A stretch of 64,000 bases of DNA from NCBI GenBank assembly GCA_007120385.1, contig SKNT01000026.1, forward strand, positions 45 to 64,044, in the 5' to 3' direction. The notes under the pieces are model-generated. The model ran no database searches. It was not told the origin of the DNA and was given only the letters and a program-made list of their open reading frames with translations. A program made the position numbers and the translations under genes. Below are positions 31,608 through 42,762 of this stretch, one piece after another. The DNA is from Balneolales bacterium. GTDB lineage: Bacteria; Bacteroidota; Rhodothermia; Balneolales; Natronogracilivirgulaceae. Position 1 is the stretch's first letter. Each line of letters opens with the position of its first letter.

Positions 31608-34121
31608 TCAGAACCGGATCCATCCTCTGTTTTCGAGAAGCTGGACCATGGATGGCAGGTAAGTCAGTGCAGAAAAAAGGGTGAGACCTATTCCCACTAC
31701 GGCCAGAATTCCAATTGAGGTAAGGCCGGGATGATTTGTCAGCAAGAGGCCGGCGAATCCCATCATGGTTGTCAGTGATCCGATGCTGATATGCTGTCCG
31801 GTACTTTTCAGTACGGCGGACATGCTCTTCTTCCCTTCTTCCCGATACCGGCTGGCCAGGTGGACCCCATTGTCGTTTCCGATACCCAGGATGGCCGGAA
31901 GAACCACCAGGTTGTACATGTTGAAGGACAGCCCAAGCAGCATCATGGCGCCGAAAGTCCAGCTCAGCCCGATAAGAAGCGGCAGCATGGCGATGATCGT
32001 CCACCGGAAAGACCGGAATCCGATGTAGACCAGTATGAAAATCATTATAAATGTCGCCGCAACCATATACGGACTTTCGTCTCTCATCAGTTCAAGCATC
32101 TCGGCAGCCACTATGGATGTGCTTGCGGCATGGTATGTTTTTCCGTCCGCCGTCTGGATCGTTCCGATCTCGTTTTTGAATGCGATGGAATTTCTACCAT
32201 CGGATAGTCCCACAGCGGGGTACACCATTACAAAGCGGCCAATTTCACCGTCGCGGGTGAGGAATCTGTTTTTCAGGAATTCGGGCACATCATCCACACT
32301 CAATGGTTCGGTGACCCGTGAAGCTCGTTGCAGGATATCCATGTACTCACCTTCCACATCCTGCATGAACGGATCGCGCAGCAGCTCGCGCACTTCTGCG
32401 ATTTTGGCCAGCTTGATTTCCTCTTCCGCCTGATTGACAGGGAAGCGTTCCTGCAAGGCTTCAACGTCAAGAATGGTCGTTTCGGGATTGGTTTCCTTCT
32501 TCTCGCGGATGGTCTGAAGAATCATTCGGACTTCCTCATCGGTATCGGCAAGAATGTAGGCCGGATTTCGTCTTCCACCTGCCTGGTCTATATTCCCCCT
32601 CAAATCACGGTAACTCTCGTATTTTGGAAATTCAGGTTCCAGTTTTCCAAAGTTGTACTCAAAATAGAGTTTGTCGGTATTGAAGAGCACTACTGCTACA
32701 ATCAGGGTTCCGGCGGCAAAAATGACACGTGCAAACGGAAACGGTTTGCCGCTGCCGGATTTGGTGTGGTCCGGGAACATGTTTTTATTTATCAGGATCA
32801 GGCCGTAGCGCTCAAAGATCACGATAATGGCCGGCATGATGAACAACATGGACAGATAGGCCAGAACAATTCCGGTTCCAGATATGAACCCAAACTCGGA
32901 AAATCCCCGGAAATCGGCTATTACAAGGACAAAAAGAGCCACGGCGGTGGTGGTGGCGCTGGTCATGATGGCGGAGCCGGTTCCTTCATAGGTTTGCATC
33001 AGCGCATTCCGGACCAGCTCCCCTGACGATCGTTTCTCCAGGTATCTTGCATAGAAATGGATTCCGTAATCGATGCCGAGGCCGAAGAGAATGACAAACA
33101 GCACCGAAGTCATGGTGTTGAGTGTTCCGAAAACGAAGTAGGTAATGGCAAAGGTTATGCTCAGACTGATGAGCAGGGGAACGCCTATAACCAGAATGGG
33201 AACAGGAAACCGGATCAGGTGATTGAAAAGTTTGTGGGTGCGGTGACGGCGATGTCCCCTTCGATAGTTGATGATTTTCTTGATCATGAAATAGAATCCC
33301 ACCAGCAGGATCACGCCGGTAATACCCGACCCGAAACTGGTGATGACGTCCTTTATTATGGAGTCAAGTTCCATGAGATGCCGTTCCAGACGTCCGCCCG
33401 CAATGGCAATCATTTCCGGATGATAAGATGCAGGATCCATTTCGTCAATGAGTTGCTGGAATGCATCGAAAAGATTGCGAATGTAAGTCAGGTCGCTTTG
33501 TGATCCGGTCGGGTAAAAGCTGAGTACCAGGCTGGAACTGTCCTGGTTCACGGGATATTCCGAGGGGATCAGCTCGTGGTACATTTCTTCAAACTTCCGC
33601 AGGCGGTCTTCCTCGTCATCCTCCTCATCGTCAAAATCATCCTCGAAATCGATAAAAAACGGGTTGGCTTCCAGCCGGGCCCGTTCCAGCCGGTCCTCCA
33701 GATAGTTGATTACCTGGTCGATTTCATCTTCCGTTGAGAGATACAGGGCATAATCCTTGAGCACTTCCACATCCCGGCGAAACTCATAGCGGTTGACAAA
33801 GTAGTCATCCCGACGGGGGTCGTGGAGTTCCATGGCCCTGGGTATCAGGGCTTCGGCGAACGCCCTGTTTGCCTCGAAATCGGGGGAGTTGATAGTCACT
33901 TCCAGCGGGGTCTCCCCTCCCACGGATTCGCGCAGCCGCTCAAGGGCCTGGACACTTTCGTAGTGTTCCGGCAGCAAACTGGCGAGGTCGGTGTCAATAG
34001 CCAGCCTGGTTGCATAAAACCCCGCTCCGACAGCAAGTGAAATGGAAATCAGCAGAACTGCAAATGGGTACCGGTAGTTGAGCTGAATCAGGGGCCTGAG
34101 CAGGGCGAGTAAAGTTCTCAT
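31608..34121 (-). CDS. MMPL/RND-superfamily transporter, HpnN-like architecture
   Basis: 837 aa with a 1+5 / 1+5 TM layout and two large periplasmic loops. The N-terminus (..YPFAVLLISISLAVGAGFYATRLAIDTDLASLLP) is typical of MMPL/HpnN-type lipid exporters. Confidence 0.82.
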   Translation of the reverse strand: MRTLLALLRPLIQLNYRYPFAVLLISISLAVGAGFYATRLAIDTDLASLLPEHYESVQALERLRESVGGETPLEVTINSPDFEANRAFAEALIPRAMELHDPRRDDYFVNRYEFRRDVEVLKDYALYLSTEDEIDQVINYLEDRLERARLEANPFFIDFEDDFDDEEDDEEDRLRKFEEMYHELIPSEYPVNQDSSSLVLSFYPTGSQSDLTYIRNLFDAFQQLIDEMDPASYHPEMIAIAGGRLERHLMELDSIIKDVITSFGSGITGVILLVGFYFMIKKIINYRRGHRRHRTHKLFNHLIRFPVPILVIGVPLLISLSITFAITYFVFGTLNTMTSVLFVILFGLGIDYGIHFYARYLEKRSSGELVRNALMQTYEGTGSAIMTSATTTAVALFVLVIADFRGFSEFGFISGTGIVLAYLSMLFIMPAIIVIFERYGLILINKNMFPDHTKSGSGKPFPFARVIFAAGTLIVAVVLFNTDKLYFEYNFGKLEPEFPKYESYRDLRGNIDQAGGRRNPAYILADTDEEVRMILQTIREKKETNPETTILDVEALQERFPVNQAEEEIKLAKIAEVRELLRDPFMQDVEGEYMDILQRASRVTEPLSVDDVPEFLKNRFLTRDGEIGRFVMVYPAVGLSDGRNSIAFKNEIGTIQTADGKTYHAASTSIVAAEMLELMRDESPYMVAATFIMIFILVYIGFRSFRWTIIAMLPLLIGLSWTFGAMMLLGLSFNMYNLVVLPAILGIGNDNGVHLASRYREEGKKSMSAVLKSTGQHISIGSLTTMMGFAGLLLTNHPGLTSIGILAVVGIGLTLFSALTYLPSMVQLLENRGWIRF

Positions 34122-34359
34122 GAAAGTATCTTTGAAATGTTATAATCGGTAAAGAAGTTACAAAAAATTGTTGAAAACCAAGCCGTTCTCACATGCAGTA
34201 AGGATTGTGACGGAAGTAAAAAAATCGGGATATTGCCGGATTGTAATACAAGGCCGGAACTGGCGTTCCATAAGATAGCCGCGCACCATCCGTTGTTCGA
34301 GAGAATGATGCTGTTTTCTTGACTGAACGAGCCGGCCGGCAAAAAAAATCCATTATATC

Positions 34360-41206: not shown

Positions 41207-41337
41207 AACTGCACGTATTGGTATGATAAAAGGTCAATTGGGATTATTGCGCCCTGGTCTGGACTTAGCCTCACTGTGTATGTCTGTTAATCCGTTATAC
41301 GAGATAATCGTCTATTTGTTCATGTTCAACACGGGTG

Positions 41338-42762
41338 TCAATCACGCTGAGCAGAGCCATTTGCCCGGGTCAGTTCGCCAAGTGGCAATCCGGCAGCCCG
41401 GTAAAGCCGGGCCATGTTCAGGTTCAGGTTGAACGTAAGCTGGCTAATTTCCAGTTCCAGCTCCATTTTCTTTTTAACGGCGTCGAGCAGGTTTCTGACA
41501 TCCCCGAATCCGATATCAATGTCAATTTGTTCGGTTCGCACCCATTCACTGCTGATTTCGAGGGCTTTGATCCGGCTTTCTCTTCGTGACTCGGAGATTC
41601 TCGCCTCACGGTACCGGTCGCTTAGTTCAAGCAGGATGCCATCTTTGGCTGCATCATGGAAATCATCCAGCTGCCTTTTCTGAATCCGCGAGCGTTCAAC
41701 GCGGTTACTAGTCTGCCAGAAGTTGAGATTCTGCTGAAATCCCACACCAAGCCGTGCCGATAGAAAGTTGGTGTTGTTTCGAATGAACGGATTGTTTTGC
41801 CTTGGACGGTTTGGAGTGTACCCGAATCCGGCGCTCAAACCGAGGAACATGCTTGGAAAATACTGTGCTCTGGAGGCCTGAAGTCCGTAGTTCGCCGCTT
41901 CACCCGCGGCCCTGAGACCTCTGAGTTCCGGTCGATTGAACAGGGCGTTGTTTTCGTAGAATCCAAAATCTTGTACCGTTACGGCCACGGGATCAAAAAA
42001 GCGTTCCGATGGCAGGTAAACGCGGTCCGGTCCGCTTGCAAGCACAAGGCCCCAGGATCTGCGAATGAAATCGCGGGTCAGTTCCATTTCAGCAACCTCG
42101 GCTTCGAACTCTGCCTTGAGGATGTAGAATTCAAAAACATCTTTTTCTTCGATTGAAGGATCCCCCTCATCCCTGAGGCGTTCCAGCTCCCTTTCAACTT
42201 CATTGAGCTGACGCAGTGCTTCATTCGTCAGACGCTCAAGATCAGCTATCAGCAGGGCTGACTGGTACAATTCAAAGAGTTGCAGCGTGAATGATTCTTT
42301 TTGCGAGTCGAGCTCATAGCGTGCCGCCTCGGCGCCTTTTCTGGCGGCATTTACAAGGTTACCTATTGCTCCCCAGGTGTAGATGGGCTGAAGACCGCTT
42401 ATCTCCGCCTGAGTGAAAATACCCCAGTCTTCCCAGTCGTTTTCCAGGTTGGGATCCAGGTAATACTGACCGGGTGTGATATTCGGATCCCGGGATTTGA
42501 CACCGGGCACAAGGCCGTGCGCCGTGGTCAGTCTCAGGTCGGGTAGCAATCGATTGGCATGGGCCTGCCTTATTCTGTTTTCCGCCATTTCAACGTTTTT
42601 TCTGCGGGCATCCAGGTTTGCGGAATATTCTTTTGCAATTGCTGCAAACTCTTCAAACGTGATGTACACGGTATCGGGTGATGGAGAATGCGCTTTTACA
42701 GGGGAAAATGGCAGAAAGGGCAGCAATATCAGCCAGGGGAAGATAAAAAGGAATTTCTGCAT
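41338..42762 (-). CDS. TolC-family outer membrane channel protein
   Basis: About 474 aa with a signal peptide (MQKFLFIFPWLILLPFLPFSPVKA) and two repeats of coiled-coil / beta-barrel type sequence. The track ORF extends to 42858 through tRNA-Ser, so I prefer the Met at 42762. Confidence 0.8.
   Translation of the reverse strand: MQKFLFIFPWLILLPFLPFSPVKAHSPSPDTVYITFEEFAAIAKEYSANLDARRKNVEMAENRIRQAHANRLLPDLRLTTAHGLVPGVKSRDPNITPGQYYLDPNLENDWEDWGIFTQAEISGLQPIYTWGAIGNLVNAARKGAEAARYELDSQKESFTLQLFELYQSALLIADLERLTNEALRQLNEVERELERLRDEGDPSIEEKDVFEFYILKAEFEAEVAEMELTRDFIRRSWGLVLASGPDRVYLPSERFFDPVAVTVQDFGFYENNALFNRPELRGLRAAGEAANYGLQASRAQYFPSMFLGLSAGFGYTPNRPRQNNPFIRNNTNFLSARLGVGFQQNLNFWQTSNRVERSRIQKRQLDDFHDAAKDGILLELSDRYREARISESRRESRIKALEISSEWVRTEQIDIDIGFGDVRNLLDAVKKKMELELEISQLTFNLNLNMARLYRAAGLPLGELTRANGSAQRD

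Follow-up and report, generated by a model that had tools for sequence, protein, structure and literature searches.

In mycobacteria, MmpL proteins export glycolipids and share their loci with glycosyltransferases; examples are the loci for glycopeptidolipids (GPL), lipooligosaccharides (LOS), sulfolipid-1 (SL-1) and phthiocerol dimycocerosates (PDIM), with carriers of the LppX/LprG type. In capsule K-loci and similar surface-glycan loci conserved transport genes flank a variable block of glycosyltransferase and flippase genes at a fixed site. HpnN and BstA transport polycyclic lipids in the direction of the outer membrane (PMC11713862), and a recent preprint predicts a hopanoid set comprised of the MMPL pump HpnN, the MlaC-like HpnM, the MlaA-like HpnS, the DUF2147 lipocalin HpnT and the LPG_synthase_TM/AglD-like HpnL (Lawrence et al. 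2025; PMC12324291). MlaA, MlaB and MlaC are reported to be mostly restricted to Proteobacteria (Grasekamp et al.; PMC10665443), and in Negativicutes a tolC homologue directly follows mlaEFD in an mlaEFD-tolC-tamB operon (PMC10665443), so that an association of TolC with Mla has a genomic precedent. Here we describe a nine-gene locus that brings together members of several of these families at positions 31608-42762 of a 64-kb stretch of DNA (64,000 nucleotides, hereafter the window) from a soda-lake Balneolales bacterium of the class Rhodothermia with a Cyclonatronaceae-like genome (contig SKNT01000026.1 of assembly GCA_007120385.1).

We tentatively read this locus as one composite envelope-biogenesis cluster of the class Rhodothermia (Balneolales, Rhodothermales) that would make and export a surface glycoconjugate lipid, and we place the chances of this reading a little below even. 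Its build is K-locus-like, with conserved transport genes arranged around a variable glycosyltransferase set. A first-pass annotation, made from the letters of the window, had regarded the genes as a single locus for glycolipid synthesis and export; of that interpretation the protein families and the gene linkage hold up, whereas the flippase label given to one membrane protein is not supported. A check of strand and coordinates recovered all nine genes as open reading frames (ORFs), and the 238-nt divergent spacer and the two ATGA overlaps that had been reported are seen directly in the sequence. Given that every gene has conserved homologues and that the identical locus is present in five public assemblies of soda-lake Balneolales, the genes can be taken as real.

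To place the locus in context we used about 170 related loci: 80 genome loci anchored on the gene for an AttH-type protein, 80 metagenome loci anchored on the gene for an MlaC-like protein, and nine look-ups made with the window AttH and with homologues of AttH and of the window proteins TM312 and P343. The window proteins were mapped on all of these loci by tblastn and the neighboring ORFs were clustered; the metagenome scan yielded only MlaC relatives of at least 47% identity and hence informs adjacency statistics rather than wider taxonomic reach. These loci resolve the gene set into three modules. Module A consists of the gene for an HpnN-like inner-membrane transporter of the resistance-nodulation-division (RND) superfamily, which belongs to the MMPL family (31608-34121, minus strand, 837 aa), and, across the divergent intergenic region of 238 nt (34122-34359) that separates it from the AttH-glycosyltransferase operon, the gene for an exported AttH/CrtC-type double-lipocalin protein (34360-35478, plus strand, 372 aa). 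The two are found in one locus in 28 genome loci, nearly always directly adjacent, and these include Balneola and three Rhodothermales contigs, in which both genes are codirectional. Module B comprises the glycosyltransferase GT2a (35509-36324, plus strand, 271 aa, the ORF being also openable at 35488), a GT4-type (GT-B) glycosyltransferase (36321-37403, plus strand, 360 aa) and TM312, a polytopic all-helical membrane protein (37400-38338, plus strand, 312 aa) that is a candidate flippase or transferase, with ATGA overlaps at 36321 (GT2a/GT4) and 37400 (GT4/TM312). Cyclonatronaceae have this module, as does Salisaeta longa, whose GT2a and TM312 share 52% and 38% identity, respectively, with their window counterparts. 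TM312 adjoins AttH in 30 loci. Module C is formed by a TolC-family outer-membrane protein (outer membrane efflux protein, OEP; 41338-42762, minus strand, 474 aa), an MlaC-family secreted lipid-binding protein (40622-41206, minus strand, 194 aa) and P343, a putative cytoplasmic GT-A-like (GT8/GT77-like) glycosyltransferase (38344-39375, minus strand, 343 aa). The OEP gene lies directly upstream of the MlaC gene in 64 of the 65 evaluable metagenome loci, an order shared by Rhodothermus profundi; P343 is the next gene after the OEP-MlaC pair in 32 of 64 metagenome loci.

The modules recombine in different orders within Balneolales, and their linkage extends to Rhodothermales, away from the chromosomal backbone of Balneolales. 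In R. profundi (L090, 7843-11053) the OEP-MlaC-P343 triad is codirectional and has no atp operon near it, being bounded by acpP-fabF-dciA on one side and by a 535-aa unannotated gene beside the ftsZ cell-division cluster on the other. A Rhodothermales chromosome (L082) gathers within about 13 kb MMPL and AttH on the plus strand, TM312 and GT2a on the minus strand, a methyltransferase gene, P343 on the minus strand and three GT4 genes, with neither atp nor RecO genes nearby. Codirectional OEP-MlaC-AttH(-P343) arrays are seen in five loci (L031, L034, L041, L059 and L079) and in Cyclonatronum proteinivorum (L092), while another Balneolales locus (L094) displays the order OEP-MlaC-P343-GT-Wzx-like-DUF3047-MMPL inside 10.5 kb. 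The most compact form of the gene set is encountered on a 1.9-Mb metagenome contig (L119, 5530-10274), where OEP, MlaC and MMPL follow one another on the same strand, separated by 16 and 133 nt, without a glycosyltransferase block. The counter-scenario raised in the first-pass annotation, that these genes are never linked in relatives, is at odds with this picture: the MMPL-AttH, OEP-MlaC and P343 links recur, including in Rhodothermales.

Between the conserved transport genes the content differs by lineage. Natronogracilivirga has only a GT4 and one GT2 gene between AttH and MlaC. The corresponding interval in Balneola species (L087, 11038-17986; L085) encodes a nucleoside triphosphate (NTP)-transferase, a myo-inositol-1-phosphate synthase, a TagF-like phosphotransferase, a GT4, a Wzx-like flippase, Wzi, another GT4 and a GT2, a complement that suggests an inositol-phosphate-containing surface glycan assembled via a donor of the CDP-inositol type. 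In Rhodohalobacter/Balneolaceae loci without MMPL (L007, L033, L035, L037 and similar ones), AttH and TM312 are accompanied by genes for Stealth (hexose-1-phosphate transferase), TagF-like, NTP-transferase and TonB-dependent-receptor-like proteins. Conserved flanks around a lineage-variable block suggest a surface-exposed product under diversifying selection. In the window itself no initiating phosphoglycosyltransferase, Wzx or Wzy gene, as expected of a Wzx/Wzy-type locus, was found at 31.6-42.8 kb; Wzx and Wzi occupy the same slot in sister lineages. With regard to the product, a glycolipid or some other lipid-linked glycan, the capsule-type genes of these sister lineages (Wzx, Wzi, TagF-like, Stealth) would weigh against singling out a glycolipid.

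Profile searches place the pump firmly in the MMPL family, with two stretches matching PF03176 (E 1e-42, 146.8 bits against a gathering threshold of 20.5), and its orthologues are 47-88% identical to the window protein. Its top NCBIfam model is HpnN with 248 bits, followed by HAE3 with 174 and BstA with 160, and its closest solved structure is HpnN of Burkholderia multivorans (5khn, E 9e-29). All of these scores stay far below the respective equivalog cut-offs, including those for HpnN (248 versus 752 bits for TIGR03480; 145 versus 1100 bits for NF052374) and for BstA (160 bits for NF045600, cut-off 1400). The concern of the first-pass annotation that the protein might prove to be an HAE1 drug pump is countered by the HAE1 models, which reach at most 23 bits versus 248 for HpnN. 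Among ORFs of at least 150 aa at 27-48 kb we found, in line with the absences that it had reported, no HlyD/membrane fusion protein (MFP) adaptor, ABC ATPase, Wzy, Wzz or initiating phosphoglycosyltransferase, and the same interval holds no adaptor gene beside the pump and no neighbor of the periplasmic-binding-protein (PBP; BstB) or TatT (BstC) type at the locus.

The product of the gene divergent from the pump had been described as secreted and possibly lipocalin-like or AttH-like, and structural comparisons agree with this. Its AlphaFold2 (AF2) model, built from 34 homologues (mean predicted local distance difference test score, pLDDT, 88), displays a helix at residues 3-33, corresponding to an N-terminal signal or anchor, followed by an all-beta body. 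The top Foldseek match of this model is AttH NE1406 (2ICH, E 3e-11, TM score 0.60-0.68), establishing a double-lipocalin fold, and further matches are kievitone hydratase, fungal Diels-Alderases and 25-phosphosteroid lyase. Pfam gave nothing above cut-off for the 372-aa protein, the CrtC N-terminal lipocalin domain scoring 16.6 bits against 22.5 (E 0.013), and two of its homologues carry a precomputed PF07143 assignment. We recovered 189 homologues at E <= 0.001; among the matches listed, with names taken from the best 120 of the 189, some are called "AttH domain", "lipocalin-like", "CrtC", "predicted secreted hydrolase" or "hydroxyneurosporene synthase CrtC" by their sources. The family shares the invariant motifs NEFWxY and YMDHTFQ (Y225-M-D227-H-T-F-Q) as well as H201, which fall within the stretch weakly resembling the CrtC N-terminal lipocalin domain. 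In a rough neighbour-joining tree, the AttH proteins linked to MMPL make up several clades, and the TM312/Stealth-linked and MlaC-linked forms are nested inside a large Balneolaceae clade. AttH homologues of Fibrobacteria have secreted non-membrane proteins and GT4/Gly_transf_sug genes as neighbors and lack MMPL; they add nothing to the pump hypothesis. Our literature search found no paper co-mentioning AttH and MMPL. In many Balneolaceae loci without AttH a secreted DUF3047 protein sits beside the MMPL gene (L094, 12993-13817; L104, L123, L154, L173). We considered DUF3047 as a remote AttH homologue and ruled this out, as profile alignment with hhalign gave a probability of 2% and there was no informative match in PDB.

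The family calls for the MlaC-like and TolC-like members of module C in the first-pass annotation are likewise borne out. The MlaC-like protein matches PF05494 (E 6e-30, 104.7 bits against a gathering threshold of 26) and has a signal peptide ending in VQA/SP; it scores 46.1 bits with the HpnM model TIGR03481 (cut-off 160.1) and 23.7 bits with the MlaC equivalog PRK15117 (cut-off 195), both well below what defines those groups. No gene for MCE/MlaD, MlaE, MlaF or MlaA was found among the annotated ORFs of the 64-kb window. The TolC-like protein contains two OEP repeats matching PF02321 (E 2e-33, 116.4 bits against 22) and scores 59 bits with TIGR01844 (cut-off 225). Its longest ORF, 506 aa from a TTG start at 42858, runs into a tRNA-Ser(TGA) gene (42816-42901, minus strand; Rfam tRNA 59.8 bits, also called by ARAGORN) that separates the atp operon from the TolC-like gene; in view of this overlap of ORF and tRNA gene, the 474-aa version starting at 42762 is the credible one. 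The gap between the TolC-like and MlaC-like genes is 131 nt in the window and 16 nt in the compact locus L119. A search confined to the locus revealed no MFP that could serve as the partner of the TolC-like protein in tripartite efflux or type I secretion. A place for the gene in an EmrAB/MFP efflux operon was considered and ruled out, its upstream neighbors being F1Fo ATP synthase genes and tRNA-Ser.

The GT2, GT4 and second GT2 assignments of the first-pass annotation were also recovered by profile searches. GT2a (PF00535, E 2e-17) has an intact QWDDDDW motif, and its orthologues in Salisaeta longa (52% identical) and in a Rhodothermales chromosome (45%) each lie near TM312. The GT4 enzyme (Glycos_transf_1, E 2e-9) has orthologues in 15 genome loci. 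GT2b (39742-40527, plus strand), a paralogue of GT2a (PF00535, E 2e-6), is indeed devoid of the DXD motif, as had been observed at first pass, and reads HWDPAAW at the site where GT2a has QWDDDDW. Its orthologues (L006-L028) display WD(A/E/P)SDW at this position; because WDPAAW is confined to the lineage of the window, the loss of the acidic residue is recent, and this copy probably contributes little or nothing catalytically. P343 has an LDSDM motif (DSD). Its family is strikingly conserved, with about 50% identity between Rhodothermus (R. profundi) and Balneolales, and searches with 30 of its members gave sub-threshold matches to Nucleotid_trans (10/30), Mannosyl_trans3 (5/30) and GT8 (3/30); the motif and these weak family matches fit a GT-A fold. 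A profile search of PDB with P343 found no homologue.

TM312 is less easily classified. The first-pass annotation had labelled it as flippase-like, but the window protein has no match to LPG_synthase_TM (PF03706) even at E 10, nor to any other Pfam model, and no fold match in PDB. The AF2 model is that of an all-helical membrane protein (pLDDT 89.7) for which Foldseek found nothing better than E 0.5 in PDB, and a sequence-profile search of PDB found no relative. A profile search of 1.84 billion proteins returned at least 709 representatives, with only the TM312 family among the matches listed, and all homologues carrying a source name come from Balneolales or Rhodothermales. TM312 belongs to a small, lineage-restricted orphan family. 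LPG_synthase_TM was matched by two of 38 family members at E <= 5; one of these (P0208) aligns over nearly its full length with E 1.8e-4, though at a sub-threshold 21.5 bits against a cut-off of 33.4. A remote relationship to PF03706 may exist, and the flippase label is better treated as a lead than as a finding. The assignment of TM312 as an LPG_synthase_TM flippase was pursued by Pfam, PDB profile, Foldseek and the large profile search and was not confirmed by any of them, P0208 alone giving the sub-threshold hit.

Bringing these observations together, we propose that GT2a, GT4 and P343 would act in the cytoplasm to glycosylate a membrane lipid acceptor at the inner face of the inner membrane, and that TM312 may translocate the product across this membrane or modify it, a role which a Wzx-type flippase would fill in sister lineages. 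The proton-driven HpnN-like MMPL pump would then pull the product from the outer leaflet, in the periplasm it would be handled by the exported double lipocalin of the AttH type together with the soluble MlaC-like protein, and the TolC-family protein would serve as the outer-membrane partner. Protein families, folds and conserved gene linkage are matters of observation; from gene context, on which the functional claims rest, we infer what the substrate is, in which order the steps take place, all contacts between the proteins and whether AttH is a carrier or an enzyme. The path from MMPL via a carrier to the TolC-like protein is accordingly offered as pure conjecture. Cultured Balneolaceae contain unidentified glycolipids (PMC12260241). 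A bolder proposal would be that Rhodothermia possess an unrecognised trans-envelope route, in which MMPL hands a glycosylated lipid to carriers of the MlaC family and the AttH type, the TolC-family protein is an adaptor-free outer-membrane acceptor replacing MlaA, and TM312 represents a new family of lipid-linked-glycan translocases; we consider this unlikely.

Three rival explanations concern individual components of the cluster. The AttH-like protein might be not a carrier but a periplasmic enzyme, a hydratase, lyase or hydrolase whose target is the hydrophobic moiety of the exported compound, with the MMPL protein supplying its substrate or removing its product; we regard this as a serious possibility, though on balance doubtful, and the choice is independent of that between a single system and separate modules. 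Besides the uncharacterised 2ICH, the significant fold neighbors of the protein (E <= 0.001) are enzymes, namely kievitone hydratase, the pericyclases Fsa2, Phm7 and CghA and 25-phosphosteroid lyase, some homologues bear the hydrolase and hydroxyneurosporene synthase names given above, the invariant polar motifs fall in the weakly CrtC-like stretch, and hydratases of the CrtC type require a His and a Trp together with a Tyr-x-Asp motif. On the other hand Svf1, a fold relative of AttH, binds ceramide without catalysis, and the unrelated DUF3047 protein found in the same position elsewhere fits an accessory or partner role equally well. Moreover, the nearest structure, AttH NE1406, has no known activity, and a part in the transport or metabolism of lipids has been suggested for it (PMC2954199). 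As for the TolC-like protein, its typical two-repeat OEP architecture would also suit an ordinary efflux or secretion duct serving pumps encoded elsewhere, for which adjacency to MlaC is incidental. TolC genes are often unlinked to the genes for their own pumps. We nevertheless hold this to be improbable in view of the adjacency to MlaC, which holds for 64 of 65 loci and recurs within the distinct genomic surroundings of Rhodothermus, the short gaps separating the two genes and the Negativicutes tolC homologue right after mlaEFD (PMC10665443). Finally, the MMPL and MlaC-like proteins could be a trafficking pair for hopanoids or other polycyclic isoprenoids, of the HpnN/HpnM or BstA type, with the glycosyltransferase genes as unrelated neighbors. 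HpnN is the best match of the pump in both NCBIfam and PDB, the carrier prefers HpnM over the MlaC equivalog (46 vs 24 bits), and the predicted hopanoid set also has lipocalin-like and LPG_synthase_TM-like proteins (PMC12324291). However, the scores are far under the equivalog cut-offs (248/752, 145/1100 and 46/160) and no squalene-hopene cyclase (shc) or hpn gene is present among the annotated ORFs of the 64-kb window, which together make a true hopanoid system unlikely; furthermore, we found no paper linking Balneolales or Rhodothermaeota to hopanoids, and HpnN is found mainly in Pseudomonadota and Desulfobacterota (preprint PMC12324291). This is the least probable of the explanations considered.

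A broader challenge to the composite cluster is that it might be three unrelated units that are adjacent by inherited order and share no substrate: a hypervariable glycosyltransferase island for surface polysaccharide or lipopolysaccharide (LPS) core, an MMPL-AttH pair exporting some other lipid, and the MlaC/TolC-like pair serving outer-membrane lipid homeostasis. We judge this rather unlikely, but several observations favor it and tell, with others, against the single-cluster reading. The flanks are housekeeping genes (the atp operon, RecO, HtrA, Icd, MutL) whose order is kept across Balneolales, where synteny spans the entire stretch from atp through OEP-MlaC to MMPL-RecO-HtrA, so that inheritance, and not selection, may account for some of the linkage. 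The middle differs by lineage and includes classic Wzx/Wzi capsule genes; R. profundi retains OEP-MlaC-P343 with neither MMPL nor AttH within 10 kb, C. proteinivorum likewise keeps the triad without MMPL within 10 kb, and in 7 of 35 metagenome loci no other gene of the set occurs within 7 kb of MlaC. Since the unrelated DUF3047 replaces AttH in many loci, AttH is not indispensable, and its invariant polar motifs, including Y-x-D, would suggest catalysis over passive carriage. Within the locus there is no gene for the synthesis of a lipid anchor and no acyltransferase gene, and, to our knowledge, a TolC-family protein without a periplasmic adaptor has no demonstrated way of accepting a lipid. 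Against a mere juxtaposition of units stand the Rhodothermales loci, in which MMPL-AttH lies beside TM312, GT2a, P343 and GT4 in another chromosomal context. P343 also bridges the modules, being on the OEP-MlaC side in Rhodothermus and on the MMPL-AttH side in L082, AttH shifts between the MMPL side and the MlaC side among lineages, and two loci (L119 and L094) hold MlaC and MMPL in one codirectional run. The composite cluster is the most economical reading and our tentative preference.

The wider surroundings of the locus in the window are as follows. On the minus strand upstream of the TolC-like gene the tRNA-Ser(TGA) gene comes after atpG, preceded by a complete atpBEFHAG operon, and the RecO and HtrA genes are downstream of the MMPL gene. 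A bactofilin gene (48671-50031, minus strand) with an M23 peptidase gene lies ahead of the atp operon; as bactofilin has this position also in the distant Balneolales loci L092 and L094, the conserved backbone synteny reaches further than the locus. About 9 kb past the end of the interval is a second, conventional glycan cluster (51727-59033, plus strand), which encodes a DegT-type aminotransferase, a FemAB-like acyltransferase, a Wzx flippase (Polysacc_synt_3), two GT4 and one GT2 enzymes. Two further envelope glycosylation genes are located outside the locus, one for a 987-aa protein with a TMEM260-like protein O-mannosyltransferase domain (9558-12521, minus strand) and the other for a GT2/GT21 enzyme of the ceramide-glucosyltransferase type (6809-8077, minus strand). 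Sizeable ORFs without a Pfam match include one of 691 aa (21473-23548, plus strand), two of 215 and 192 aa (15484-16814, minus strand) and one of 183 aa (28579-29130, minus strand), the last of which adjoins HtrA and is conserved across Cyclonatronaceae. A scan of the locus for sigma-70 promoters and terminators gave no excess of sites over shuffled sequence, the consensus being probably unfit for this phylum.

Outside Proteobacteria, little is understood of how lipids that are neither LPS nor lipoproteins are delivered to the outer membrane. A conserved MlaC/TolC-like pair in Rhodothermia, which are related to Bacteroidota, has recurrent links to an HpnN-like pump, to a double lipocalin and to glycosyltransferases. 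It is thus a concrete candidate for such a route that lends itself to testing, and the linkage of the pair would suggest a role in lipid handling for a TolC-family protein. In addition, TM312 and P343 emerge from the analysis as two conserved families not yet characterised, both of which are amenable to study in cultured hosts such as Rhodothermus, Cyclonatronum, Natronogracilivirga and Salisaeta. Should the modules be independent of each other, the locus would be a mere variable surface-glycan island between housekeeping genes.

Compared with known systems, the cluster might be regarded as a type of MMPL-centred lipid export with periplasmic carriers, which parallels the logic of the predicted Hpn set with different parts. 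The statement of the first-pass annotation that no characterised system has this combination holds for characterised systems, but the 2025 preprint (PMC12324291) predicts a closely parallel hopanoid set. Both have an HpnN-type MMPL pump, secreted proteins of the MlaC family and the lipocalin type, and a polytopic protein with LPG_synthase_TM affinity (here very weak); both are also encoded next to lipid-modifying enzymes and lack an MFP adaptor. In contrast, the present cluster has a TolC-family rather than an MlaA-like outer-membrane partner, an AttH double barrel rather than DUF2147, and GT2, GT4 and GT-A neighbors rather than hopanoid enzymes; its host belongs to Rhodothermia and not to Pseudomonadota, and the window proteins all fall under the Hpn equivalog cut-offs. 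BstABC of Methylococcus capsulatus (PMC11713862) similarly unites an MmpL/HpnN-like inner-membrane protein, a periplasmic binder and an outer-membrane-associated component beside lipid-making enzymes, but its binder BstB is of the PBP fold and its component BstC a lipoprotein of the TatT/tetratricopeptide repeat (TPR) type, both unrelated to MlaC, AttH and TolC, and the substrate of Bst is a sterol. The Mla pathway (MlaFEDB-MlaC-MlaA/OmpC) and the Negativicutes operon share with the window a secreted MlaC-family protein beside an outer-membrane protein; here, however, an RND/MMPL pump would be the inner-membrane partner, and MlaE, MlaF, MlaD and MlaA are not among the annotated ORFs of the window.

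The mycobacterial MmpL loci resemble the cluster in having glycosyltransferases (and, in the relatives L082 and L094, methyltransferases) beside the exporter and in the assistance of beta-rich periplasmic lipid-binding proteins. They differ in serving a mycomembrane instead of an LPS outer membrane, and in their MmpS, polyketide synthase (PKS) and acyltransferase genes, which are not present here, whereas the TolC-like and MlaC-like partners are found only in the Rhodothermia cluster. Capsule K-loci and group 1 cps loci have the same arrangement of transport genes at the edges and a variable glycosyltransferase/flippase block at a fixed site, but the locus in the window lacks Wza, Wzb, Wzc and Wzy as well as an initiating phosphoglycosyltransferase, and its flanks belong to families of lipid transport and not of polysaccharide export.

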